Source: a virus
Taxonomy: Duplodnaviria > Caudoviricetes
Length of the DNA: 64,000 bases
Virus record (IMG/VR): IMGVR_UViG_3300031949_001696
Reading direction: 5' to 3' (one strand)
The position numbers were made by a program, and so were the translations under genes. Position 1 is the first letter of the stretch. The number at the start of each line of letters is the position of its first letter. The notes under the pieces are model-generated. The model did not search any database. It saw only the letters and a list, made by a program, of their open reading frames with translations, and had not been told where the DNA came from. This document shows, one piece after another, positions 4,203-56,000 of the stretch.

Positions 4203-4922
4203 TCAAGTGCTCCTCGTCGAATCGCGGGACTCCGCTACTTGCGCTTCCTGCGCTTCCTCAGCATCGATTTCGGCCCAGATCGACACGAACTGCGCGCTCG
4301 TCAGGTACCGCTTTGCTTTCTGAACGAAGAGTTCTTCGCGCGCTCTCGACGACGAGTGCCGATGCTGCTGACCCTTCAGCTCTGTGAGCTTCCGCTGCAA
4401 CGCGAGGGATGTCGTTTGAAGATCGGCTAGGTGCTGCTCGCGTTGGCGATACACGGCCGGCGGCTCGTAGATGCCGCGAGTCGCCGCGTTTGCCTTCGCC
4501 CGGCCGATCTGCACCTTGAGTTGGCGGATCTCGTTGTCGACTTTGTCTTTCATCAGGACGATTTCTGATCGTTGCTTCTCGAAGGTGGTAGCGGTGGGTG
4601 CGAGGTGGATCTGGACGTGCCGCGCAGCTTCCGCCTCGCGTTGCTGCTGTGCACGCTGGGACTTGTCGTCGTTCTCGCTTTGCTTGACGTTGCGCCACCA
4701 GCGGTTGCGGTCGCCCTCCCGGGTGTCGTGCGGCACGTCGTGCTCGTCGAGCGCGTCGCTCACGGCGTCGAGGTCGAACGGCGTCGCCAGCGTGGGCAGC
4801 CACAGCGTTTGGCCATCCGGCACGTAGATCAAAATCGTCTGCGGGTGTTCGGGGAACAGCGTGATCCGCAGGGGGCGAGGATCGAACGCACACGGCATCG
4901 GCGGCTTCGTCGGCATCGTCAT
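4203..4922 (-). CDS. hypothetical coiled-coil protein
   Basis: ATG at 4922 overlaps the upstream stop; Q/E/K/R-rich C-terminal half. Confidence 0.65.
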   Translation of the reverse strand: MTMPTKPPMPCAFDPRPLRITLFPEHPQTILIYVPDGQTLWLPTLATPFDLDAVSDALDEHDVPHDTREGDRNRWWRNVKQSENDDKSQRAQQQREAEAARHVQIHLAPTATTFEKQRSEIVLMKDKVDNEIRQLKVQIGRAKANAATRGIYEPPAVYRQREQHLADLQTTSLALQRKLTELKGQQHRHSSSRAREELFVQKAKRYLTSAQFVSIWAEIDAEEAQEAQVAESRDSTRST

Positions 4923-5395
4923 CGGGGCGACCTCGTGCGCTTCGTCGGCATCAGCTTCGAGCGCTTGGGCAGCGGGATCTTGTTCGCCTTCATCATCGCG
5001 GTGAACGTCGGGAACAGCTTCGGACCTTTCTTGTCCTCGACTTCCTCGAACGTGACGGCTCCCCGCATGACGAGGATGCGCACGCCGATCGCGTCGAACC
5101 CCATCACGCGGATCCAGCCTTGACAGGGAATGTTGGACAGGACAGGTAATTTCGGCGAAGCTTGTGAAGCGATGGTTGCTCGATCGCTTGATGATCGAGA
5201 CATGTTCGTGCCGTCGTCTTTGCTGCTGCGCTGAATGTTGGCGAAGTGGCAAAGCATGCTGTGCAGACCGTCGTCCTGGCAGTTTTGCCAGACATCGACG
5301 AAATGCTGCGGGTCCCAGTAGTCGCGCGGAGCGTCGATGCGCCACGGGCAGTTCGAGCACGGCCGCCGGAGCTTCGTGGTAGCTGCCTCGGTCAC
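4919..5395 (-). CDS. DUF6283-like Cys/His phage protein with an atypical internal segment
   Basis: PCxxCPWR...MLCH...CQGW motif; a Ser-rich 35-aa stretch lies between CH and CQGW. Confidence 0.55.
   Translation of the reverse strand: MTEAATTKLRRPCSNCPWRIDAPRDYWDPQHFVDVWQNCQDDGLHSMLCHFANIQRSSKDDGTNMSRSSSDRATIASQASPKLPVLSNIPCQGWIRVMGFDAIGVRILVMRGAVTFEEVEDKKGPKLFPTFTAMMKANKIPLPKRSKLMPTKRTRSPR
5166..5201 (+). repeat. solitary CRISPR-repeat homologue, same family as the 61.6-64 kb array
   Basis: TTGCTCGATCGCTTGATGATCGAGAC matches the array repeat 3' end TTGCTCGGTTGGTTGACGACCGAGAC at 21/26 positions; the 8-bp stem and 5-nt loop are kept by compensatory changes. Confidence 0.75.
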
Positions 5396-5754
5396 GTGCC
5401 GACCTTCCGCAGCTCGGCGATGCGCGCGCTGCCCCGCTGGTCGCGACGCCCGATGAAGTCGCCTTGCAGCTTGATCGCAGTCTCCGCAATACCGCACGCC
5501 TCGTCGCGTGCCGCGGTCATCGCAGCGAGACTCTTCAGCAGTAGGTCGATCTTCGTCCAGATGTCGCCGTGCCCCGGCACCATCTGGTGGAGGTCGTCGT
5601 AGCCGCGCTGTTTCGCGTCGATGTCGCCGAGCAAAACGAGGACTGTCATCGGGCCCGCGGCGTCGGCGAAGACTTCACGCGCGTTCGAGTTGACCAGTGC
5701 CGCCGCGGCGAGCGTGCGGAGCTTCTCGATCAATGCTCGTTGTTCCGCTGTCAT
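5392..5754 (-). CDS. hypothetical protein sharing a C-terminal module with 5751-6017
   Basis: MTAARDEAC.IA...RIAELRKVG in both. Confidence 0.65.
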   Translation of the reverse strand: MTAEQRALIEKLRTLAAAALVNSNAREVFADAAGPMTVLVLLGDIDAKQRGYDDLHQMVPGHGDIWTKIDLLLKSLAAMTAARDEACGIAETAIKLQGDFIGRRDQRGSARIAELRKVGT

Positions 5755-7615: not shown

Positions 7616-8470
7616 TACAGAAGCCTCCGAAATTCCGTCGTGGTGTGAATCCAGCCATCGTCGCATTCGATTTGCACGACGATCGCGTTGTCATCGCCGA
7701 TTCCGACGGTGACGATCCGGCCGATCAGCTTCCGTGTTTCATCGTGCAACGGCCCCTGTTTCTCGACGAGGGCCTCGACGCGTGTACCGATCAGCTCGGT
7801 GACGACGCGCGGACGGATGGAGCTGTCTCCAGTCATACAGCCTCCTTGCTGCCGCGCGCGATCGCGTCGGCCGTGGGCATGGGATCGTCGAGGTAGCCGC
7901 TGCCGTCGCAGCGCGCAGGGGGCAACGACGCGATCCACCAGCAGCTCTTCTCCTTCGAGTCTGGCGGCTCGAAGCAAAAGCCGATCCGGCGGTGCTCGTA
8001 CACCAGCTCGACGTGGGTCTCCCCGCCGGCCAGCGTGGTGTAGTGGAGATCGAGGAGCTTCACGGGGCTTCCTCGGTGTTGAAGTCGAAGCCGTGCAGCT
8101 CCGCGAACGTGTCGTCCCAGAAGCGCGTGACGATCTCGTGGGGCGTCGGTTTCTTGGTCGTCGTTAACCGGATGCCGATACCGTCGAGCTCGCGCACGGT
8201 GTGCCAGCGCCAGAACGTGCGCGTCGCACCGTCACGAGAGACACGGAATTTGACGGCCCAGGTGCCGGGATTGTTCGTGGCTTGGTCCTGGTGGGGTTTC
8301 ACGTCGACGATTCTGACGGTGATCATGTGCTCTTCTCCTTGTGCGCTCCGCGCTCCTCTCGTTTTCAGTTGGCGCATCGGTGCTCCTGACATTCTTGGGA
8401 ACTCGCGAAGTACGTCAGGCACGTCTGGCAGACGCGACGGTCGAAGCATGCTTATCCGGTTGTCGCCCAA

Positions 8471-8833
8471 TCACTTGGCAACCCGTCGATCAATAACCAC
8501 GGTCGCACCGCAGCGCTGGCAGTAGTTCTCACCGTCGCGCACGCTGCATTCGCCGCGCTCCTGGCACGACTTGAAGCACCCGCGCACGAAACCTTGAAGG
8601 AAGGCCAGATTGAGGCGCTTGCACTCCTCCTTGTATCTAGCCCAGTCGCTCTGCATTCCTACGACGGAGCCCCACGGTCCACGGAGCACAGGGCCGCCGG
8701 TCATCGACTGCTCACCGACGTCGAATGCCTCCATCTCGATTCGCTCAAGCTTTCGTTCGCCGCTCAAGACGAGATGCACGACTGCGTTGTTCCATTCGGT
8801 CTCGATGGCCGGCTTTGTGTGGTTATCGGTCAC
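8471..8833 (-). CDS. cassette passenger, hypothetical protein
   Basis: Preceded by CCCAAGGAG; lower-GC codons; stop abuts the terminal repeat. Confidence 0.65.
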   Translation of the reverse strand: MTDNHTKPAIETEWNNAVVHLVLSGERKLERIEMEAFDVGEQSMTGGPVLRGPWGSVVGMQSDWARYKEECKRLNLAFLQGFVRGCFKSCQERGECSVRDGENYCQRCGATVVIDRRVAK

Positions 8834-8863
8834 TTGCAAGCTCCTTGGGTTAGCACCCATCGA

Positions 8864-9142
8864 TCATCCCGCCTTACGCCGAAGCGTGAACATTCCAGGT
8901 CTAAGCTGGACGCGCTCATAGTCCGGGTTCAGGTATTCGACGCACTTTCCACCACACGGCGGGCATAGCGTTTCATCCTGCGTTCTGGAGCTGATAAGCT
9001 CATCCGCGTTATACGAGGACGAGTGGAGGTAGCCGAATGTCTGCGTGCAGCAGCAACATTTTCCAACGCCTCCCCACCAGCCACCTTGCGGAAGTTGACT
9101 CCCGCCAATTGGGCGACCATGCGGGCATGCCACGACGCTCAT
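8864..9142 (-). CDS. cassette passenger, Cys-rich hypothetical protein
   Basis: CCCAAGGAG-N4-ATG; lower-GC codons. Confidence 0.6.
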   Translation of the reverse strand: MSVVACPHGRPIGGSQLPQGGWWGGVGKCCCCTQTFGYLHSSSYNADELISSRTQDETLCPPCGGKCVEYLNPDYERVQLRPGMFTLRRKAG

Positions 9143-9235
9143 GCGGCTCCTTGGGTGATAAGCGGAAGTTGACTCCCGCCAATTGGGCGACCATGCGGGC
9201 ATGCCACGACGCTCATGCGGCTCCTTGGGTGATAA
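9088..9235. repeat. exact 74-bp tandem duplication
   Basis: 9088-9161 equals 9162-9235; covers the inner TIR, RBS and gene start. Confidence 0.95.
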
Positions 9236-10187
9236 CCGGACAGTCATGGGTCGAAGCACGCGTTGCACATCTCGAAGCGCACCGTGCCGTCCTTGCGACG
9301 CACGGTCGCGCGTTCGTCAGCCAGGGCGCAGGTGCATGCACATTGTACAGCGCTCATCGATCTGCCCCCTTCGCGGCGGATCGCCGCGCTGCCAGCTCGT
9401 CGAGCGCGCGGACGAGCAGCGTGTCTCCCGACGTCGTCGAAGCGCGCAGGAAGCCCAGCTCGGCGTCGGTGAGGAAGTCCGTGTCCGCGTTCTCCGCGTG
9501 CTGGACGATCTCGGTCTTCGCGGCCTCCGATCGCGGCCGACCGTCGTCCTGGTCGCAGCCGTGCCCGCGATGCCAGTCGCGCCAGTGGCCCACGAACCAT
9601 GGCGGCGTGTGATCGGTGCAGGACTTGGACACCGCTTGCTCCGTCATCGAGGCCCCCTGACCACGGCTGCGTGGTTTTTCGCTCGGTCTTCTCGTCGTCG
9701 TCGCAAAAGATACGCGACGGCGCCGCTGCACGGCGGGCAGAGGTGTCCGTGAGCGTGCTGCGTGCAACCTGACTCCTCGGGCTCGGGCTCCGGTGCCCCG
9801 AAGATCATGCCAACAACAGAGGTGATGGCGGAGTCGACGACATGTTGTCGGCTCATCGAAAATTCGACGACATAGAGGATCTCCGCGCCACAGCCGACGC
9901 ACGCACTCTTGAGGCGTATTCCGTCCGCGTTCACGTCGACGACGGGTTGATCAGTTTTCAGCATGTAGTTGTCATCCGCGGTGCGCCAATTCCTTAGCAG
10001 CCATTACGTGCGTTCAGGATCTCGGCGCAGCGGGCGCGCGCGGCAAGCTTGGACTGCGATGGAAACGGCCGCCGTTCCCCGAGCGCGACTGAGATCGTGG
10101 TGTAGGTCAAGCCATGAAACGGCAACACTCGCCGCAGCTCGCGAAGCTGATCATCGGTGATCGTATCGGCGGTCAGCATTTGATCTC

Positions 10188-10214
10188 CCTTGGGTGTCAA
10201 TCGGATAAGCACGG
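10188..10214 (-). repeat. orphan cassette left end
   Basis: AACTAA|CCGTGCTTATCCGATTGACACCCAAGG, 25/27 identical to 46848-46874 and preceded by the same AACTAA. Confidence 0.8.
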
Positions 10215-10712
10215 TTAGTTCCAATCACTCACCAGCCACCAGGCTGCCTTCTGACCGTCGATCTTGATGCCCATCGCCGCGCAGAATTCGGCGAGCGCGG
10301 CGTCCCAGGCGGGATCCACGGCCAGCGAAGTGATTTCGTTCATGTCGCCACGGTTGCTGATCGTTCGCGACGCCTGCACGGCCACGTAGGGCATTGGGCA
10401 CTCGCCCGAGCAGTGCGTGTCGATCAAGCACGTGGCCTCTTCGACGAGCTTTCGCTTCGCGGCCCAGTACGCCGTGTGCTGGTCGATGATCGCCTGCTCT
10501 TCGGCGCTGTAGTCCGTTGGCGTCGAGTTCCAGCCGTTCTCGCGCGTGGGCGTGACCATGCGTGCGGGGAACGGTGTGCTCGGCGGCAGGCAGCCCTTCG
10601 TGCGGGCGTAGCGTCCCTCCCAGTCGTCGTCGGGATCGATCTCCCACGGGCGTGAGGTCTCGTCGTCCCAGCAGTAGCCGTAGAACAGGATCGCGTCGGT
10701 TGACGTACCCAT
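10215..10712 (-). CDS. hypothetical protein
   Basis: Strong codon pattern; RBS GGAGG before ATG 10712. Confidence 0.75.
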   Translation of the reverse strand: MGTSTDAILFYGYCWDDETSRPWEIDPDDDWEGRYARTKGCLPPSTPFPARMVTPTRENGWNSTPTDYSAEEQAIIDQHTAYWAAKRKLVEEATCLIDTHCSGECPMPYVAVQASRTISNRGDMNEITSLAVDPAWDAALAEFCAAMGIKIDGQKAAWWLVSDWN

Positions 10713-27381: not shown

Positions 27382-28940
27382 AGGAGCCATAGCTGAGATG
27401 AGCATGCGCAAGTGTTCCACGATCAAGTGCCCTCACTACGTGCGCGAGGGTCTGCGCCGCTTCGGGGCCGGCGTCGATGGCCAGGAGCTGGCCGACGGGC
27501 GGTTCTGCTGGCGGTGTCGCGCGCGGCACGCCGCCTCTGAACGCCGAGATGTACGTCGAGACGCGCGCCGAGATGCGCGGAAGGAGATCCCGTGAGCGAG
27601 ACGCCCCCTTCCTTTCAACCAGAGCCTTGTACGGGTTTCTACGTGGGCTACGACCTGGAGGGCGGAAGCTCGTACCGGAAGCCGTGCTGGAGGCGCTGTG
27701 GCTGCGGGCTGCCGGGATGTCCGTCTCTCGATCCTGCACTGCCGCCCGTGCCGATCGCGCACGTCCGCTCGCAAGAAGATCAGCCCTACGGATCCGAGAG
27801 GCGCTGCTGCAACCACTGCGGCGTCATGCTCTGGGGGTCGTCGTCGCCGCCGTATGTCGACAACTGGACCGATTGGCGTGAGCGGCCGGACAGATGTGCG
27901 CTGACCGAGCTAGAGAGGAAGGCTGCGTTGGAGCGGAGGGCGGGCGCGTGAGTGTCGAAGTCATCGCAATTCGCCGTCCGATCGCTCGTCGATCCGGCGA
28001 CCTGCCATGTCGGCCGCGCGCCGACGACACCGCGTGGGCAGTCATGATTCGCGTCGGTGCACGTACGTTTACGTCGGACTGCCAGGATCGCGAAGAGGCG
28101 ATCGCGGCGGCGACTGTCATCAACGCTGAGCTGTCACAACACTACGTGGATCAGCGGGGGCGAGGATGATCGACGTCGTCAGTAACCTCGTCGGTGAGAT
28201 CGTCGAGATCTACGAGTGGGACGACTATCGCGATTCGGGCGGATACAGTCTGCGGAGTCGTGGCACCGTCCGCGCGGTCTACGTCGCCGACAAGAAGCTC
28301 ATGGTCCTCGTCGAGCATAACCTCCTCGGCTACGATTCGTATTCGTTCAGCGATAGAGCCAAGGACGGGGGTTTCGAAATGTACTCGCTCCACGAAGGCC
28401 GCGTGCGCGCCGTGCAGCGCTGCCGGCACTGCGCGTCGTGGGACCAGAAAGCTCTCCTCGTTCAAGCGGGCCCGGGTTTCCGCGACGACGTCTGGGCGCA
28501 CAAGGATGGTGAGGGCTGCAAGGAAACTCGATGATCGTCCCGGGGCCGCCGATCCGCGACGTCACGCTCCGCGAAATGCTGGAGGCGATGTCGTCGTACC
28601 GGGACGACGAGACGTTCCGATGGTTTCAGACGTCCGTTCTGAACAGCCGCGGCGAGCCGACCGCGACCGACACGTTGCGCGTCTCAATAGGACAAGCGCG
28701 CCGTGAAGTGCTGGGGTGTCCGTGAGCGAGCTGTTCAAGCCTGGTCACACGGGTTCGTGCTCGCACATGCGAACGTATCGTGGCAAGGACGCTCCACTTC
28801 GGTGGGGATCAGCGCGCACCGAAGTCTGCCGTGACTGTGCCTCGTTTCGTCTGCGAACCCATCACGACGAGATCCGCGGTGATTGGACGTCTGGCGATCA
28901 GTACGCTGACGCTGTAGCGGAACAGGAGCTGGACTAGATG

Positions 28941-33217: not shown

Positions 33218-35001
33218 GCGGCGAGATCTCTTGCGGGGCGGGTATCGAACTACCCAGTTCCGTCGTGGCGCGAGTCCAGCTACAACGAGGAGACCTGTCA
33301 TAACCGCAGCGCAACTGTTTTTGATGTCCAAGGAGCCCCAATTGAGTGAAGTGTCGACGCAAGAGGAATCAGATCAGCGCGCTCAAGAGGCATGGGCAAC
33401 CGTGCCTGCTGACCTCGAACGACTAGCCGAACAATGTTGCGACGAGTACCACGGCGAGATCGGGACATTTCAAAACTTCTCCGACGATCGCCGTCGCTGG
33501 CGTGAGTTCGCGAAGTTTATTTGGGGACTCGGTGCTCGGCCGCACCTCGAAGGCTAGGCAGGGGTGACTCGATGAGCGCAGATCCCGACGTGCTTGGACA
33601 ACTCGTGCGCGCCACGTTCGCCGATCAGTGGTGGTACTCGCCGCAGATGCCCATCGACGAGGTGCTGATTCGCGCTCGCACGCGGCTTCGGCATGATCAT
33701 GAGGAGAAGTGTAGCGTCGTCGTGGAGAACTTACGTCAGCTGCGCGCCGATCGCGGCTTCACGCTTTCTGAGTCGCGCGCGATCCTCGTCGCCGACGAGG
33801 CACTCGGCGTCTCCTACGACGCCCGCCTATCTTCCGGCCACGTGCTCGGTATCGAGGAGCGCGAGGCGTGGGTAAAGCTCGTCGAGTTAGCACAGGTGCG
33901 CGTCACCGCGCACGCACGTCTAGCCCAGCCCACGAGGCCGATGATCAACGGCCGGGCACACTGCATGATGGGACCGCCAGGTTACCGCTGTTCATGTGGC
34001 ACTACGTTTGATGACTATTACGGCTTGGCAGAACATGTGCGGCGGACGATCGATTGTCCACGCTGCGGCGCGTCACCTGCCGACCTGGGTGACGGCGAGG
34101 GCTGCCGCTGGACGTGCGGTCACTGGATCGCCGCGCGCGATCCATTGGCGACGCTGCGCGGTGGAGACTCGGCGTGATGCGAAAGCTACGCTTGGTCCCG
34201 CGTCCCGCCGTCCTCGAACTCGGCGGCCTCTCCTTGGATCCGGGGTTCTCGGGGAGCGTGACGGCTCTCGCCCCTGGTAAGATGCGCGTGGTCGAGGCCC
34301 GCATCGCGGCCGATTTTCAGCATTCCAGTGTCGGGCAGTGGGTGCGTCGTCGGGTTCCCGGCGCGCGGCGACTCCTCGGCGGCTACGACGCTTACCAGCG
34401 CAAGCACGCGACTGCGCGAGCCCGCATCGATTACGTCTCCGTTGACTCGCAGAGCTGCCTGCCGGACTGCTGCGACGAGCTGCCGATCGCCATCAGAGGA
34501 CGCGAGATCTCGGTGAGCGTGACCAACACCGGAACGCGATCGCTCGTCGCGCGCGTTATCGTCGAGGTGGAGGGACCGTGGTGACTGAGCCGCGGAAACA
34601 AAAATGGGTCCGTGCGAAGTCGATGGGCATCGGCCGGTACGTGCGTTGTCCGTACTGTCCCGATCTCCGCGAGATCGCTCTCAACGAGAGCATGCCCTGG
34701 TGCGCGTCGTGCGGCTGCGAGTACCGCATCACGCCGCTCGGCGCGACGTTCGATCCGGCGCTGAAGACACCACGCTACGCGTGGGGCAAGGCGCTCAACT
34801 TGTCCGGCGGCATGCGGATTGGAAAGGCAAGCAGATCGTGAGCCGGCCCCGTCACCTGACCCGCGCGGAGTTCTGCCGCGATCGCGATCGCGATCGTCCG
34901 ACGCGGCGCCTGCCAGGACGCGGCTGACGAAGGTCGCGCCCTACTACCACCCGAACGTCGATCGGCCGGTGAACGCATCCGGTTAGCGCCCAAGGAGTAA
35001 C

Positions 35002-35871
35002 TTGATGAAGAGCAAGTGTGAGATTCCAGCGATGACGCTGCCGCCGTGCGACCTCGAATGGGGCCACGACGGTGACATGCACGCCAACGGTGGCGATGGG
35101 TTCTACGCCGAGCAACATCTCGACGAGCATCGCCATCGACAAGACGAACGAGCACTCGAAGACGCGCGGGCTGCCGGCCGCGCCGACGCCATCGCAAGTT
35201 GCGAGGCCGTGGAACGTGCACATCAGCTCGTCGAGTTGACGGATTTACGCTCCGAGGTCGCGCGCCTTCGGTCGGAGAACGGTGAGCTGCGCGTAGCGCT
35301 TGAACAGATGAAGAAGGTGAAGTCACTCCTGGATTTCTGGCCACCACCGGCCGATCTACCCAGCGCCGAGGAGTCCGTCGGCATCTGGTACGAACTCGAA
35401 TGTGCGTTGGAAGGTAAGAACGGCTACGGCGGCGACGTCGCCGAGATCTACGCCTACCGGCTCCTGTCGGGAGGCGCCACGGCCATCCGCGATATGATGA
35501 CGACTCCGTCAACGGAAGAAGAGGCGCGCGTGGCCGAGATGCACGTGGCATGCGTGGCGGCGAAAAATCTGACGTGGCTCGTACGCCGCTTCGTCGAGCT
35601 GCACGCTGGAGTCGAGATCGGAATCGAGACCGATCCGCGGCAGTTCCACATGATCGATCCGCGCGCGGAGGAGTTCCCTCCGTTCTCGCATCGTGTACAT
35701 GTACGCGTGTCGCGCAGAGCCCAGGTCCGACGTGCACTCGCGGGTGAGCTGCGCGCTATGTGGGAAGGCGCGAAGGGCACACGCGCGATGCTGCCGGAGG
35801 CCGACTTCGCGCGGTGGTCTTTCGCGACCAAGGACTTGCTCGCCGTGCTCGACGACGAGACGAGTCTATGA
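35002..35871 (+). CDS. mosaic hypothetical protein preceded by a degenerate cassette end
   Basis: ATCCGGTTAGCGCCCAAGGAG at 34977-34997; contains the 158-bp shared module. Confidence 0.7.
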   Translation: MMKSKCEIPAMTLPPCDLEWGHDGDMHANGGDGFYAEQHLDEHRHRQDERALEDARAAGRADAIASCEAVERAHQLVELTDLRSEVARLRSENGELRVALEQMKKVKSLLDFWPPPADLPSAEESVGIWYELECALEGKNGYGGDVAEIYAYRLLSGGATAIRDMMTTPSTEEEARVAEMHVACVAAKNLTWLVRRFVELHAGVEIGIETDPRQFHMIDPRAEEFPPFSHRVHVRVSRRAQVRRALAGELRAMWEGAKGTRAMLPEADFARWSFATKDLLAVLDDETSL

Positions 35872-43633: not shown

Positions 43634-46600
43634 CAACCGCCGCCCACTATCACGTGTGGTGTCTGTCGTGGGACGACGAGGAGGAGTACGGATCCGACGT
43701 CGTCGGCTACGACATCTTCTGCCACGACTTCAAGACCGAGAAGCGCGGCATCGTCTACGTCCCGAGCACCACGCTCTACGACGCGAAGGCTGCGGCGGAG
43801 GCATACGCCGACTACGCGTATAGACAACGCGACGGCTGGGAGTCGACCTGGCCGCTCGTGTTCCGCGTCCGTGGCTCGGATGGACAGGTCACAGACTTCG
43901 ATGTCGACTGCCAGCACGTCCCCGAGTTTTCTGCGTCGCCGCTCGAACGACCTGCCGACCTGTGCGCCGACTCATGCGAGCGCTGCGATGCTACGTGCCG
44001 ACAAGTCGAGGACGCCGTGCGTCGGGTCCCGTGCCCGAAGCACGGCACCACGCGCTGGCAGCGCGAGCTCGACGCGATCGCTGCGGGAGAGGCTCTGTGA
44101 AGCTGACGAAGGACATGACGAGGGGAGAGCGTGCGAAGACGGTACTCTTGCTCCGCTGCGCTGCCGAGGTCGCTGTCACGGGTGATCACGTCCTCGGGCC
44201 CAGTCGGCACACCGCACCGCGCCTGGGTCTCGACAAGCACGTGTGCGCTCTCGCGACTCGGGCCGTGAGGTACGTCGCGAGGGAGACGGGACGAGATCCC
44301 GACGCCGCAAACGATCTCGACGAGTACGTCAGCGTCGTGCTCGAAGCGGCGCAGTGCATCGAGGAGAGATCGTGGCCATGAAGAAGTCGAAGAAGATGAA
44401 GCCACGCCCCCTCGCGCCCAAGCAGCGCGAGGTGCTCGCTCGCTCCGCCGTCGGCGAAGATCGCCAGCTGCCCGCGCGCTACGATCCGGGACCGCCGCCG
44501 TTCATGCGACCGGCGATGCGCTGGTTCGTGCCGCCCGGGCTCGTGGTCCCTAGTGGATCGGTCGAGTATCAGGCTGCGCGAGCGCTAGCCGCGCGAGGGC
44601 TGCTCAAGCTTGGCAGTGTTCCGCCGTCGCCCGAGCTGCCGTACGGTCAGGGTGGGTACCTCATCACGAAGAAAGGAAAGTCGGCACTTCGATGAAGAGC
44701 TTACAGATCGACGGCAAAGTCATGGGCGTCATCCACGCCAAGAAGACCGAGGGTCAGTCGAGGATCTGGCTGACCGCGAAACCCGACGCGACGTGGTGGA
44801 TCGTGGTCGAGGGACCTGATCAGCGGATCCGCGAAGTAGGCTTCGTTCGACCTCCGCAGGAAGCGCGCGCTCGGGACACCTACGCTTCCTTGAGCAAGCC
44901 GCACGTGCTCGAAGCATTCCTGGAGGGGAAGGATTCTTGATGACCACTCCGCGCGAGTTCATTGACGATGAGTTCTCGTTCACCGTCTGGCCGAAGGACG
45001 GATCGGACGACGACGCGCTCGACGTTCACGCGCTAACTCCGAACCAGGCCGCCGAGCTGCGAGCGAAGACCGACTACACCGGCGATCCCGACTGGCGGGC
45101 CAGCTACTGCGTCCGCAACAACTTCACGGGGACGCTCTACGTGATCGACGTCGGTGTCGTTCCGCAGCCCTCGTTCGTGGCGCTCCTCGCGCGCGAGGTG
45201 CCCATACCGGCCGCTACCCACGTGCTGTGGGGAGGCCACGTCTTGTGCGAGGACAAGCGACTGCGCGGCGTCCCACGCGACTGGCCCCAAGATCAGCGCT
45301 GGATCTCGCTCCAGGATGTCGCCGACGGAACCGAGGTTCCAGCAAATCTTCAGTGCGAAGCGTGCTTCGCCAAGGCGCCCGGGCTCGTGGCCGGCATCCG
45401 CCAGATCGGAGTGAAGGCTCGATGAAGAAGGTCGCGAGGACCGCACGACTCGTCGTCGTCGAGAACTGTGTCGGCTGTCCGTTCTCGTACGAGTGCGACA
45501 ACGAATGGACGTGCACGACCGCGGAAGACGACGATGGTCATTACAAGACGATCATGCGTACGCAGAAGCGCCGCGGCGGACCGTGGCTGCCGCCACCGAA
45601 GTGGTGTCCCCTGCGCGCCGAGATCGTCGTCGTTACTCTCGGAGAAAAGGCAAGATCATGAAAACCGTCGACGTCGAGTGCTCCTGCTACGGCTGCACGA
45701 TCAAGCGCCAGCGCTTGGGCATCGTTCCGCCCGATCGCTCCGCCGAGCCGTGTCAACCACCGGGCGCATGCGCGAGCCACGGCCAGTGCTGGACCCACAG
45801 TGAGTGGGTCGATGAGGCGCGCTGTGATCCTCCGAACGCGTGCGTCACTGGATCGCACTGCGCGACGCATGCTGCACGCAAAGAGGTGTCGTGACCGAGT
45901 CGTACTCGCTACTCGACGACAACGACGGTCGTTGTGAGCAATGCAACGACCCGAAGACTGTCGAGCAAGTCCAACAGACGTATCCGATCAAGCCGCGGGG
46001 TGATTTGCAATGGGGGACGCTGTGGCTCTGTCCGCTTTGTCTGGCCAAGGCCAAGCTCCGCGATCAGGACAAGAATATCCCGGCGATCGCGAGCGCGACG
46101 CGGGGTGAGACCAAGCCACTTGTCCTCCAGGATGCAGGCTGGCGCGATGTCGCCGCCGACTTTCTCCGAATTGGCCGACTCAGCGAGGCCGTCGATCTCA
46201 TCCACCGCCACCTGAGCGATGGTTGGCTTAAGCTCGTGCCCGGAGACTTCATCTCTTTCGACGAGCAGGGCGTCTCTACGACGTTGAGAAACGACGGCCA
46301 GGTTACGGCGCGCATCAAGCTCGTCGTTCTTCATGACCTTCGGGACCCGATCACAGATGCGATTGCGGAAAGCAGGCCGCGTTATGAGTAATCCATTCTC
46401 CTGGTACCGCATGCTGTACTGGCGGTTCCGCTGGCACGTCTTCCCGCGTCGGCGCTACACCACGCGCTGTCAATACTGCGCCGCGATCACCGGCCGCACG
46501 ATGCACGTGTGGGCGACCGAAGACGTGTGCGCGAGCTGCGCCGCACCACTTCTGGAAATGGAGAGCGTGAACGGATGACCTACGATCAAATGCTCGACCA

Positions 46601-46847
46601 CTGCAAGAAGCTGCTCGCGGCGAATCAGCACGCGTACATCGATCCAGACACGCTCGCGATGGCCAAGTTCATCGTCGACACGCTCGGGGTGGTGTTCCCG
46701 TGCGGCTTCCCTGAGCCTCGCGTCGGAACCGCGCCTGACGGCAGCACGAACGTGATGATCGAGGACATCGTGTTCGGCACGCGTGACGAGGCTCTCGGTA
46801 TCGCCGTAGCGATCATTCGCCATGCTCTTGAGCTACCAGAGAACTAA

Positions 46848-47134
46848 CCATGCTTATCCGGTTGACACCCAAGGACTGCAATGAAGACCAGATGGCAAGA
46901 CGGCAAGCGCTTCACCGTCCATGTTGAAGACTACAACGGGCATCGTTTTGAAGCGGTCGCCCGTGTTGTCGACGCTTTCAAGATCGGCAACGCAATCCGC
47001 GCGCAGTTGGAACTAGAGACTCCGTGCCCGCATGGAAACTGCTTCATCGGACGTGTGCGCGTAATGTCGCGACCCTCGCAGAGAGCGCATCCCATTCGAG
47101 TGCTTCGTAACGGGTGACAAACGGATAGGCACGG
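46848..47134 (+). mobile_element. non-autonomous TIR gene cassette, 287 bp, one passenger gene
   Basis: CCATGCTTATCCGGTTGACACCC...GGGTGACAAACGGATAGGCACGG; AACTAA at 46842-46847 and 47135-47140. Confidence 0.85.
46881..47117 (+). CDS. cassette passenger, hypothetical protein
   Basis: RBS AAGGA comes from the left end; stop TGA lies in the right TIR; lower-GC codons. Confidence 0.7.
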   Translation: MKTRWQDGKRFTVHVEDYNGHRFEAVARVVDAFKIGNAIRAQLELETPCPHGNCFIGRVRVMSRPSQRAHPIRVLRNG

Positions 47135-47164
47135 AACTAACTATCCACGACAAGGAGATCCGAC

Positions 47165-47491
47165 ATGCAGGAATTATCGCTCACCGTTCCGATCACGCTC
47201 TTTGGCGCCGCACAGCTCTTGCGCGACCGCGGCTGGACGACCCGTCAGATGGAGCATCCCGATGGGCGCATGTGCCTGGTCGGCGCGATCCAGCGCTACG
47301 TGGCGGAGAGCGGCATCAGCGATCCAGTTGTTGCGGATAATCTTGCCACCGACGCGGTCAACGCGGTCACTCGGATCCTCTGGGTGATCCGGTGCGACAA
47401 GCCTCATCCGACAGCATGGAACGATCGGTACTGTACTTCGGTCGAGGACGCGATCGACGTCCTTGAACGCGCGGCGCGGGTGGTGGCGTGA
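47165..47491 (+). CDS. DUF6197-like phage protein
   Basis: AA.LL..RGW......GRMCLVGAI...WND......I.VL..AA. Confidence 0.6.
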   Translation: MQELSLTVPITLFGAAQLLRDRGWTTRQMEHPDGRMCLVGAIQRYVAESGISDPVVADNLATDAVNAVTRILWVIRCDKPHPTAWNDRYCTSVEDAIDVLERAARVVA

Positions 47492-49143
47492 ACGCCGACG
47501 TCCGCCGCTCGTCCCAGGTCCTCGCGGCGCTCAACCACGCCGCGTACACCTTTCGTTCGTTCACGGCCGCGGACTGGCAAGACATGGCCAAGGAGTGTCA
47601 GCGCCAGGCCGACGAGCGTACGTGCGTTGACTGCGGCAAAGATGTTCTCACGGCGCGCCATGCCGTGAAAACGCAGTTGGAGACGCGTGAGCACCGGCGG
47701 CGCGATGATCGGTGGTCGTGTCGATGAGCGGCCCGAGCAAGAAAGCATTGGTCGGGCACCACCTGACGGAGGCGATCCGGCATCTCTACGCCGCCGCGGA
47801 GTTCGTGCGCGAGCTGGTCGATGACGATCCGAACGATCTGGCGATGACCCTCGTGCGCGCGGCCGAGACCGCTCGCGATGTCCGCGGCGAAGTCGAAGGA
47901 AGCTCGAAGTGAACATCCACGAAGAAGCCTTCCTCGCCGATCTGCGCCGCGCGCTCGCGGAGCGGACCGACTTGACCGAGCAGGAGCGCTATCTGATCAC
48001 GAACCAGATCGCCTTCGTCGAGGAAGGGACGATCGGACTGACAGGTCCTGATACGGCGAACGATTTCATCGAGCGCTACAGGAACCACTACCCCTGAGGT
48101 TTTTATGCCCCGCACGAAGAAGAGTAAGGAACTCACCGAGACACCACCGAGCTGCTCCGTCTGCGACGAGCGGCTCGCGGATGGATCGCTGTACGTGAGC
48201 TTCAGTCCGTTTGCCGAGCAGCGCGAGAGCTTGCGACCCCGCAAGTACGACGATCCGCCCGCGATGAATCGCGGCTGGTCGCTGCACCTGCCGATCTGCG
48301 GGCCATGCGTCCGCGCGTCGGTGTCAGTGTGCGTCAAGATGGAGCTGAAAAACGAGAAGGGAACGTGGGCCCACATATCGAGCGAGGTCCCGCGATGAGT
48401 GCTGATCCCGAGGAAAGGAAGCGCCTCTTAGCCAACGCAGGGATTGGCCCTTTGCCGATCGAGCGCATCGCCGAGATCGCCGCGCTACGTGGCTCGCAAG
48501 GCCGTGTTGTCTCGGCGTCGGAGATCGACGCGATGGCCTTCGAGCTTCTCGACGCTCGAGATGCGGCGAAGCGCGGCGAAGGCGGCTCGATACCGATGCG
48601 GCTGCCCTGTCCTGAATGCGGCACGTTGCATATCGATGAGGGCGAGTTCGCGACGAAAAGTCACCATACGCATGCATGTCAAAACTGCGGGATGGTTTGG
48701 CGACCTGCGGTCGTCCCGACCGTCGGCGTCCGCTTTCTCCCCGGTTTCAAGAGCGAGGTCTAGATGACTTTCAAGATCGACCTGCGGCCCGGGACGAAGC
48801 TCTCGGAGCACTTCACCAATCGTCGTGACTGCTACAAGGTCGTCGAGGTCGACAACGTCCTCGGCTACGTCGTGTCGGGCGGAGGGCGCGATAGCGCCGC
48901 GCACATCTATCCATTGTATCACGCCGACATTCACATCAAGGCCGGGAAGACGTGGCGTCTCGTGTCGTCGTACGAGCAGGGAGATCGATTCAACGCCTTC
49001 ACGTTCCACACCGACTACGAAGGCTGCACGTTCGCCTCGATTGCTTCCCAGGCGATCCGGGCACTCGAAGACCGGCGTCACGTACGCGAGCTCTCGAAGA
49101 AAGCCGCGGCAGCGAAGCGTCCTCGACGAAAGGCGCGCGGGTG

Positions 49144-53034: not shown

Positions 53035-56000
53035 AGAAGACACATTGGCTGTACGGACGCGGTCCCGACAAGATTCTCGACTTCAAGAAAGAGATCGACG
53101 AGGAGAGTGATTGCTCGAAGTGTATCCATCGCGAGGTGTGCAGCTTCGACATGAGCAAGCGATGCGAGAACTATACGTGGGGGACGTCCGAACATGCGTC
53201 GACGAGCTGTCACAGCTGCTCGCGTAGGTTCACGCGTTTCGACGAGCACAAGGTTCCCTGCTTCACGTGTCCTTGGTTCGAGGCGCGAAAAGAGGATGCG
53301 GTGGCCAAAGACGGTGCACAGTGACAGAGCAGGTGTTGCTCCGTGAGCGGCTCGCCGCCATCGCTCGTCGCGGTCGTGTTCCGCTCGCCAGGGTCGTCGA
53401 GGAGCACTTCGAACGATCCGCGATCCGCGAGTATCTCGGCGAGCTGCCGCGCGAAGAGGCGGAGGCCGCGGCGGTGGACGACACGCGCGACGTGCTGGGG
53501 GTGCCTCGGTGAGCGATCAGCCACAGCCCCAGGTGGAGCTGGTCGGGCGTCAGTTCCGCCTGCGCCGCGATCACCACCCCAAGACGCGCGGACGCATCGC
53601 TGTCGTCCTGGATGTCCGCCCATCGCGTAGCACGGGCTGCGGTGTCCGCCTGACGTATCGCTACGAGGACTCTCCTCCGAAGGCGACGCGCCGAGTCTCG
53701 CAGCGCTGGTTTCTGGAGAGCTTCACGCCGATCGTTGAAACAATCGACGAAACGCCCGTGGAGGCACAGTGACTGCCCGTGGTCCCGGATCGAAGACGGT
53801 GCCGCGCCCACGCAGCAAGAAGAGCGAGCTGGACGGGCCCATGCGCGACGTGGTCTACATCTTCGAGGGCGAGGGCAATCGCGGCGGCGGACACTGGCGT
53901 CTCGTCCTCGAGTGCGGGCACTTCGTCGCACGCAAGCGCTACGTGCCTCGGAAGGACACGGCGCTGGTGCACATGATGTTCCGGCCCTTGTCCGAGAAGC
54001 TCGCGCCCAAGCGCGTGCAGTGCCACTACTGCGGATCTGGTTCTCCGAAGCAAGATCCGTGGATCATGGTCAAGGCGCTCGGTGGAGAGGTACCGTGAAG
54101 ATCTTGACAGAGCTGACGCCGTCCGGTGACCTCGTAATTAAGAACTACTACGGCGGCATCACCCAGGATGTGCTGCGTGTCGAGCATTTCCTCGTCGGTG
54201 ATCTCATCCAATCCCTACGCTCGACGCTGTCGGATCGTTATCAGGAATCGATCGAGCACACGAAGCTCGCGCTCGCGTCGTCCCTGCGCCCCGATGTCCT
54301 GGCGACCGTCCGGGACGCGTTCTTGAGCGGTAATGACGTCGAGGCCCTCGCGTTGCTCTCGCACGAGCTGGGGCTCGTCAAAGTCGCATCGCCGCACCCG
54401 GAGTACCGACCGCTCCAGGTCGGTGATCCCGTCGTCGTGATCGCCTACGGCAGGATCCGCAGCTTGGCTGCCGTCGTGAACATCGACGACACGACCCTCT
54501 GTCGCGCACCCTATGTCATCGGACTGTTCAGCGGTGGCCTCGGATACGACGGTCCCAACTGGGATCCTGGTGCCGACGCGTCGGACTACCGCAGCTTCGA
54601 CGCGATGGCCGACGAGGTTCGCTACTGCGATCCACCAGCGCACCTCGAAGAGCGCGCCCGTAAGGACGACGAGGAGGATCCGCGACCATGAAGATTGGGG
54701 TCTATGTCACCGTCGATCATTTCGGCAAGGCGCCGCTGGCCTCACGCCCGCTCTGTCAGGGCTGCACGCCACCTTCCGTCGACGGGCGATCGGAGTCCGC
54801 GATCGTCCCTGAGCGTGCCGAGTACCAGGTCGTCGGCGCCTCGGGCACCCTCGCGCTCTGCCGCGACTGCGCGATCCACGCGATCAAGTCGCTCGCCGCG
54901 CGCTTCATGCTGTTCGACCCGAGCGCGACGCGCGATCTCATGAGCTTCTTCGCGGCCGAAGCGGGCAAGAAGCGACCCGCTGCCCGCAAGAAGCGACGCG
55001 CGCCCAAGCGCGTGATCGACGTCGCCGCGCCGCTCCTCCTGGAAGAGAAGAAAAGGTCCTCGTGACCATGGACCTCGCCGTCCTCCGCGATCGCCTACGC
55101 GCGGAGCTGTCCCAGCTCACGTACGAGATGGTGGAGCTGATGCACCCAGAGACCCGTGCTCAGCACGCCGCGCTGTCGATCGAGTCGTCCGAGCGCGTGA
55201 AGGACCACGTCTATCGGATGACGATCGCGGTCATCGACGGCGAGGTCAACTTCTTCGTGCACGTGCACGGCGCCAGCAAGGACTTCACCACGCAGGGAAC
55301 GCAGCGCTTTCGCAAGGTATGCACGAGTCTCGACGAGGTGTTCACCATCGTGCGCAGCTGCTGGACGGGAAGGGCGCCCTCGTGAACCTCCCGGCCGCTC
55401 TCCGCAAGGCGCTCGCCGTCGTCCGCGACGAGAAGCGCGCGGCGTACCTTCAGAGTTCCTCATCGCGCTACCGGTTGATCCCGGAGCAGCACCACCGGTT
55501 CGGAGTCGACGACAGCCTTTGCGACAAGTGGAGCCGCGCGTGATGCCCAAGATTTTCGCGCGCAGGTGCCACGCGACGTGGCTGCTCGTGAACGGACGTG
55601 CTGCGCTGGGCACGATCGGACTTGCGGTGCTCACTTTCGGTGGCCGGAAGTGAGCTGCCCGCGCGGCCCGCGCACCATTATCACCGAGAGAGATGTGCAC
55701 CGCATGGCCCAACGCTACCGGATCGCCATGAAGAAGACGAACAGACAACTCGACGCGGAGAGCCCGATGACACTACCGAAGAAAGAAGCGGAAGCTGCGA
55801 CGGCCGATGACCTCTCGCTCGAGCAGCTAACGGACCTGGTGGGCGAGGCAAGTGGCTGGAACGACCGCGCGAACATCACGTTCCGGCGCGAAATCGATCG
55901 GTCCAGGGTGCCGCACCGATCCTACGTCGCGGTGAGCGTCGAGATCTGCGGCGGCAAGGCGTCGGTGAGTGCGGGCGGTGCTGATCATCGTAAGGCGCTC

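Follow-up and report, generated by a model that had tools for sequence, protein, structure and literature searches.

A small unit between two phage genes

The window, meaning the whole 64,000-nucleotide stretch of DNA analysed here, is part of a contig of about 333 kb from a giant phage with a G+C content of 63%. Between a 90-aa gene of no family and a DUF6197 gene of this phage lies a compact unit composed of paired terminal inverted repeats, an 8-bp target-site duplication and one open reading frame (ORF) (Table 1). The first-pass annotation had described a complete mobile unit with one passenger gene at this place, with borders at 46842-47140, a length of 287 bp and a perfect duplication of AACTAA. 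The mobile unit itself stands, but its size is 285 bp (46849-47133), and AACTAA, although perfectly repeated, is only the core of a duplication of 8 bp, GAACTAAC.

Table 1. Coordinates of the unit, its flanking genes and the related elements in the window
Feature	Position	Strand	Description
Upstream phage gene	46575-46847	+	90 aa, no family; TAA stop inside left duplication copy
Left target-site duplication copy	46841-46848	n/a	8 bp, GAACTAAC
Cassette	46849-47133		285 bp, 22-bp terminal inverted repeats, one 78-aa gene
Left terminal inverted repeat	46849-46870	+	22 nt; 22/22 against family consensus CRTGCYTATCCGNTTGWCACCC
AAGGA, Shine-Dalgarno-like	46871-46875	+	abuts left repeat; ATG 5 nt on
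Passenger gene	46881-47117	+	78 aa; small family, no named function
Right terminal inverted repeat	47112-47133	-	22 nt; 22/22 against consensus
Right target-site duplication copy	47134-47141	n/a	8 bp, GAACTAAC
Downstream phage gene, DUF6197	47165-47491	+	PF19698, E 1.2e-16; own AAGGAG and ATG intact
Sister cassette	8447-9248	-	802 bp; duplication GGTCGAAG; two unrelated small ORFs
Third element	9968-10213	-	intact repeat 10192-10213; 61-aa ORF 9994-10179

The passenger ORF covers 83% of the element, and its translation signals are supplied by the two ends, as had been noted from the sequence: AAGGA abuts the left repeat, and the TGA stop (47115-47117) lies inside the right one. When the element and one copy of the duplication are deleted in silico, the remaining sequence reads stop, 10 nt, AAGGAG, 7 nt and the ATG of the DUF6197 gene, in agreement with the earlier claim that removal gives back a normal stop-RBS-start junction. 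The left and right repeats are complementary at 18 of 22 positions (23 nt at 83% in a repeat search); since they differ at the other 4, this copy may no longer be mobile. Promoter-like and terminator-like sites were absent from 45800-48200. Because the passenger is co-directional with its neighbours, with a ribosome-binding site after the left repeat and a stop in the right repeat, it could be translated without a promoter of its own. A blastn search of 46300-47700 against 50,697 deposited phage genomes returned no match.

How often such ends would arise by chance was assessed with 200 first-order Markov shuffles of the window, in which an end-like site was defined as one matching at 17 or more of 22 positions. 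Six such sites are present in the window against a mean of 0.7 per shuffle, one of the six, at 28679, looking itself like chance, and two repeat pairs with a matching 8-bp flank are present against none in the 200 shuffles. Similarly, the word CACCCAAGGAG, with one mismatch allowed, occurs six times against 0.65 expected. In some actinophages, start-associated sequences are found before genes, and the end words might likewise be conserved translation or transcription control sequences preceding phage genes, with the flanking direct repeat being a matter of chance. CACCCAAGGAG-like words do stand directly before start codons at several places, and words of this type also lie 5' of the start codon in several other phage cassettes. 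However, the word is also found inverted after the gene, with flanks matching at 8 of 8 positions, an arrangement never produced by the shuffles. Moreover, as described below, in unrelated bacteria these 22-nt ends flank transposase genes and also delimit short forms with no coding content, and the similarity to a second copy, at locus L197, stops exactly at the repeat tip. Control sequences are thus an extremely improbable explanation.

Two further elements in the window carry ends of this kind. A comparison of repeats and duplications agrees with the first-pass annotation that the element placed at 8446-9249 has ends of the same family, together with an unrelated passenger and target. Within this sister cassette, 9088-9235 is a perfect 74-bp tandem duplication (9088-9161 and 9162-9235), by which the beginning of the inner ORF is doubled along with the CACCCAAGGAG word and a portion of the right repeat. 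The intact repeat of the third element is flanked by GAACTAAC (10214-10221), which overlaps the stop codon of the preceding gene; its far end, at about 9968-9990, reads as decayed. In addition, a solitary end-like word lies at 34976-35008 (13/16 to the inner repeat), followed by CCCAAGGAG and an ATG 7 nt on; no partner end was found for it, and it may represent either the remains of an old cassette or a chance resemblance. Elsewhere in the window, ten ORFs of 271-428 aa (1756-2937, 4206-5489 and 53735-54688 among them) gave no Pfam match at E 0.001, which may reflect either the choice of the wrong strand in GC-rich DNA or a very novel gene content.

The flanking genes have relatives, and these relatives have other neighbours. 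Homologues of the upstream gene, at 65-76% identity, end in PEET, PETS, P or PEAA before the stop, versus PEN in the window; in the four relatives of this gene other genes follow, never DUF6197, and a scan of viral contigs with it gave one weak match only. Relatives of the DUF6197 gene (L207-L210, 80-83% identity) are in turn preceded by other genes. The expectation that the 46575-46847 gene would be found directly before the DUF6197 gene was not borne out at any of the four upstream-gene relatives or the six downstream-gene loci (three distinct homologues), and none of them combines both flanks with an empty site. Contigs of four sequencing runs compared with 45800-48200 contained neither a joint across the element nor an empty site, a result that, coming from contigs and not reads, is silent either way. 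In the run that is probably the source, contigs are broken at the repeat; several of them agree through the left repeat as far as 46874-46875 and differ beyond it, which would be expected of a sample containing a number of cassettes that have this end in common. Near one homologue of the 90-aa gene, an IS1595-type end (18/22) is present one gene upstream (L203, 279-300), which indicates that phages related to the window phage also carry such ends.

Ends and targets of the IS1595 type

Public collections were scanned with a 20-nt end word containing three degenerate positions. The word is present in 75 viral-contig stretches and in at least 120 bacterial-genome stretches; among the matches listed, the bacterial carriers are mostly Alpha- and Betaproteobacteria, with some Myxococcota, Acidobacteriota and others. 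Complete elements were called by pairing the ends according to orientation and requiring flanks identical at 7 or more of 8 positions. At least 102 were recovered among the end-word matches listed, 2 in the window and 100 elsewhere, and at least 92 distinct ones among these matches have perfect 8-bp duplications. The outer two positions of the 8-mer vary among these at least 92 distinct elements, yet match from side to side within each; the duplication is therefore 8 bp long, and the repeat begins at CRTGC.

Elements of 1064-1170 bp with these ends encode one protein, which combines Zn_ribbon_IS1595 and DDE_Tnp_IS1595 domains and matches PF12760, PF12762 and NF033547 ('IS1595 family transposase'). 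Since this transposase is encoded by full-length elements whose ends match those of the 285-bp unit, the unit's ends are, on sequence comparison, those of the IS1595 insertion-sequence family, for which a duplication of 8 bp is typical. The family ends read CRTGCYTATCC and the full copies measure 1064-1170 bp, features which we take to resemble the ISSod11 subgroup (motif nnnGcnTATC, 8-bp duplications and a length of 1.0-1.1 kb in the ISfinder table). Shorter bacterial forms, of 101-378 bp, are non-coding or deletion remnants, and in the 272-bp remnants of Paracoccaceae the similarity to the transposase is still visible. Viral contigs contain forms without a transposase and others, of 1.5-2.6 kb, in which the transposase is accompanied by extra genes; transposase-bearing forms with a left repeat identical to that of the window cassette occur among them, L005 being an example.

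The 285-bp element has no similarity to an IS1595 transposase by tblastn. As it contains no transposase, the unit is to be regarded as a non-autonomous derivative, not as an insertion sequence. The 64-kb window, out of a contig of about 333 kb, likewise contains no IS1595 transposase or TnpB detectable by tblastn with two IS1595 transposases and one TnpB, nothing falling below E 0.19; the cassette is therefore presumed to have been mobilised in trans.

Taken together, the at least 92 duplications give a roughly palindromic target profile, G-W-W-Y-R-W-W-C. Scored against it, GAACTAAC falls among the best 0.4% of the window's 8-mers and the duplication of the 8447-9248 cassette, GGTCGAAG, among the best 1.4%, so that the recurrence of AACTAA at the flanks is explained by target-site preference. 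GAACTAAC occurs three times in the 64 kb, namely as the two copies at this cassette and as the flank of the third element (10214-10221). Both target sites in the window overlap the stop codon (AAC TAA) of the preceding gene. Since AT-rich targets are rare in a phage of 63% G+C and those used here overlap stop codons, the preference may explain why the insertions lie between genes. In relatives of the DUF6197 gene without an insertion, GAACCAAC or GAACCAAT stands uninterrupted, separated by about 10 nt from AAGGAGATCYGACATG as in the window and with no adjoining repeat; the 8-mer is thus kept in these relatives, and the right copy of the duplication is native to the region upstream of DUF6197.

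One contig from a freshwater-sediment run, 89% identical over the start of the DUF6197 gene, has at this GAACTAAC a directly adjoining IS1595-like right end of another sequence (…AACCGGACAAGCAAG; 47134-47148; 30 nt shown). This may reflect an old insertion common to the two, or a hot spot that was struck twice.

The passenger gene and related cassettes

The passenger belongs to a small family, comprising five homologues and, in addition, three loci, with identities of 43-97%. Word-based and exhaustive searches yielded P0001 (97%), P0002 (57%), P0008 (58%) and P0011 (43%), and a metagenome scan added loci at 76%, 56% and 63%, while a scan of viral contigs with the passenger alignment gave no match. 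The alignment of five sequences has 20 invariant columns. Compared with the copy at L197, the window gene shows 8 synonymous and 3 non-synonymous changes, and all three of the latter fall in the C-terminal tail. Judged by these comparisons, the passenger is a real gene under selection.

This bears directly on the reading of the unit as a plain non-coding miniature inverted-repeat transposable element (MITE), that is, a decayed insertion sequence with an accidental inner ORF. A length of 285 bp is typical of MITEs, and the 272-bp forms of Paracoccaceae demonstrate that deletion remnants retaining transposase similarity do arise with these ends. The present element, however, has no such similarity, its ORF has homologues at 43-76% identity both in and out of cassettes with the 20 columns invariant, and synonymous changes predominate against the nearest copy. 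An accidental ORF in a MITE is accordingly very unlikely.

The passenger matched no Pfam, PHROG or NCBIfam family, and the best Atlas feature score, 0.80, is within the chance range. Large repeat proteins (SprB, fn3 proteins and others) that appeared as relatives in the exhaustive search were rejected as artefacts of summing over repeats. The protein is predicted, with low confidence (pLDDT 63), to fold as a small beta barrel; Foldseek of this model against the PDB gave no convincing match (best E 0.17). The Atlas shape matches to PilZ, ROF, WYL and similar small barrels, with TM 0.4-0.6 on a model of pLDDT 63, were set aside as not interpretable. As a guess, it is perhaps an accessory or counter-defence protein, because the few nameable passengers in sister phage cassettes, described below, are nucleic-acid-modifying enzymes.

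The first-pass annotation had held that a passenger confined to this locus, and lacking these ends in relatives, would speak against a mobile cassette; this is not the case. A complete cassette of 307 bp is present at L214, at an unrelated site, with both repeats at 20/22 and a perfect duplication of its own, GTTGATCG; its passenger is 56% identical to the window copy and 76% to P0002, and a TAA lying in the right repeat terminates its ORF. At L197/L198, passenger DNA about 96% identical to that of the window lies between different genes, and the two sequences remain similar precisely up to the right repeat's tip, beyond which the flanks are unrelated. On the left side of this copy the repeat is missing and the similarity begins at AGGACTGCAATG. 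The passenger thus occurs with the same ends elsewhere, and the cassette is evidently present at other loci. At L199/L215, L205, L206 and L213, the homologue lacks repeats and sits in an operon like any other gene. Possible decayed remnants of a left repeat in L197 and of repeats in L199 were considered but dropped, as the resemblance was too weak. Cassette-borne and repeat-less passengers are interleaved, which could result either from repeated decay of the ends after insertion or from repeated capture.

The unit has many counterparts in other phages. Among the viral-contig loci, 32 distinct transposase-less units of 207-1191 bp were found (30 if two near-identical pairs are merged). Most of them contain one ORF, with 27-58 nt separating its start from one tip and 5-68 nt its end from the other, and in most the ORF covers 74-95% of the unit. 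An AGGAG-like word often comes right after CACCC, and the TGA of the repeat, 16 nt from the tip, serves as the stop codon in four other phage cassettes too, while others use a TAR word nearer to the tip. A Pfam search of 20 passengers left 17 without a family; the three that could be named are a D12-class (Dam-like) adenine methyltransferase, a SpoU methylase and a Mom-family protein. A test comparing the direction of the cassette with that of its neighbours, based on the longest open frame in the flanks, was discarded, as it misclassified even this window.

Two of the viral contigs deserve separate mention. At L057 (4200-5335; IMGVR_UViG_3300050119_000104), a 351-aa TnpB-type gene (OrfB_IS605 and Cas12f1-like TNB) lies between exact-match IS1595-type ends, and this contig also has two mini-elements of 235 bp (L064) besides several additional ends. 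At L069 (3546-4580) and L186 (2899-3806), cassettes adjoin in pairs, with one 8-mer (GAAAGAAC and CGTTGATC, respectively) standing before, between and after them; the threefold occurrence of a single 8-mer suggests repeated insertion at one target and hence small cassette arrays.

These observations also allow the possibility to be weighed that giant phages possess a gene-cassette system of their own, integron-like or with its own recombinase, in which the ends are recombination sites. The three units of the window have unrelated passengers, the stacked units of L069 and L186 share one flank word each, and the gene-filling layout with built-in translation signals recurs, all of which would fit such a system. 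In many bacteria and phages, however, these ends flank IS1595 transposase genes of the ordinary type. Each complete unit, moreover, has two inverted ends and a perfect 8-bp duplication, which are marks of DDE transposition, not of site-specific recombination, and no recombinase gene appears to be linked to the units of the window. A separate system is highly improbable on this evidence, and the novelty implied by the first-pass annotation, which had taken the repeated pattern for a system, does not survive the assignment of the ends to the known IS1595 family.

Probable mobile insertion cassettes in phages and known systems

The 285-bp unit is very probably a non-autonomous IS1595-family derivative, namely a mobile insertion cassette formed by two 22-bp repeats and one passenger. 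A transposase of the IS1595 type (DDE type with an N-terminal zinc ribbon), supplied from elsewhere in the phage or by the host, would bind the repeats and insert the unit at a target of 8 bp that is AT-rich and roughly palindromic (G-W-W-Y-R-W-W-C); the 8 target base pairs would become duplicated when the staggered cut is repaired. The passenger, having no promoter of its own, would then be translated from the polycistronic read-through mRNA of the operon, while the downstream DUF6197 gene would keep its start signals after the insertion. Expression of the passenger, and any benefit from it, are likewise inferred.

As a mobile unit the cassette is genuine, but it belongs to a kind already known and does not constitute a new system. 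In this giant phage the cassettes hitch-hike on a transposon family that is already known, which leaves one candidate fewer for a 'new system'. Nevertheless, the recurring architecture hints at a gene-exchange pool. It might be that environmental phages, giant ones included, maintain a phage-adapted pool of IS1595-ended single-gene cassettes, with a ribosome-binding site at one repeat, stop codons in two frames in the other and AT-rich targets, which in the window are gene ends. Such a pool would permit the plug-in exchange of small accessory genes, possibly for counter-defence, and its architecture would have been selected, not be a by-product of small size. This broader proposal is tentative and, in our estimate, rather unlikely; if true, it would mean that an integron-like role is run on a transposase. 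The cassette ends flag small genes of no named function as being under active exchange, and shared ends together with a partner transposase could help to tie such phages to their hosts. Among the top-ranked matches of a literature search, no paper was found that links IS1595 to giant phages.

In integrons, a gene cassette has a single attC at one end and is inserted by the integron integrase without target duplication. The window unit is different in having two inverted ends and an 8-bp duplication.

The insertion sequences of the IS1595 family (Siguier, Gagnevin and Chandler 2009, as cited in PMC3129680) are like the cassette in their terminal repeats, their 8-bp duplication and their target preference. 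They differ from it in that the cassette lacks a transposase gene, is 285 bp long and carries an unrelated gene of 78 aa.

MITEs are treated as non-coding in a survey that found them in 0.01% of viral sequences and reported their presence in phage genomes (PMC11602168). The window unit shares with them its small size, its terminal inverted repeats, its target duplication, its lack of a transposase and its occurrence in a phage genome, but it is coding, and one end-word scan sufficed to find 32 gene-carrying relatives in viral contigs. Gene-carrying IS1595 mini-cassettes therefore appear to be common in uncultivated phages, in contrast to the rare, non-coding viral MITEs (PMC11602168).

The MPME1 and MPME2 elements of mycobacteriophages are 439-440 bp long and have inverted repeats and one small, constant ORF; on insertion, 6 bp of unknown origin are added at the left repeat and no target duplication is made (PMC3029335). 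As with the window unit, they are very small, possess inverted repeats and one small ORF, and insert between or into phage genes. The window unit, in contrast, has 285 bp, a true 8-bp duplication, IS1595 ends and passengers that are interchangeable.

The counterpart in architecture is the mobile insertion cassette (MIC), in which IS ends surround passenger genes without a transposase, as in MIC231 of Bacillus cereus (De Palmenaer et al. 2004; described in PMC3129680 and PMC3281130). MICs are presumed there to be moved in trans by the cognate insertion sequence, and IS1595 'transporter IS' that carry passenger genes are described as well, both being well-established notions (PMC3129680, PMC3281130). 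The design, with IS ends enclosing a passenger in the absence of a transposase, is exactly that of the window cassette. In the same accounts, MIC231 has IS231 (IS4-family) ends and resides in bacterial genomes, whereas the window cassette has IS1595-type ends and resides in a giant phage; compared with MIC231 as described there, it is reduced to one gene, whose translation signals are placed against and inside the repeats.
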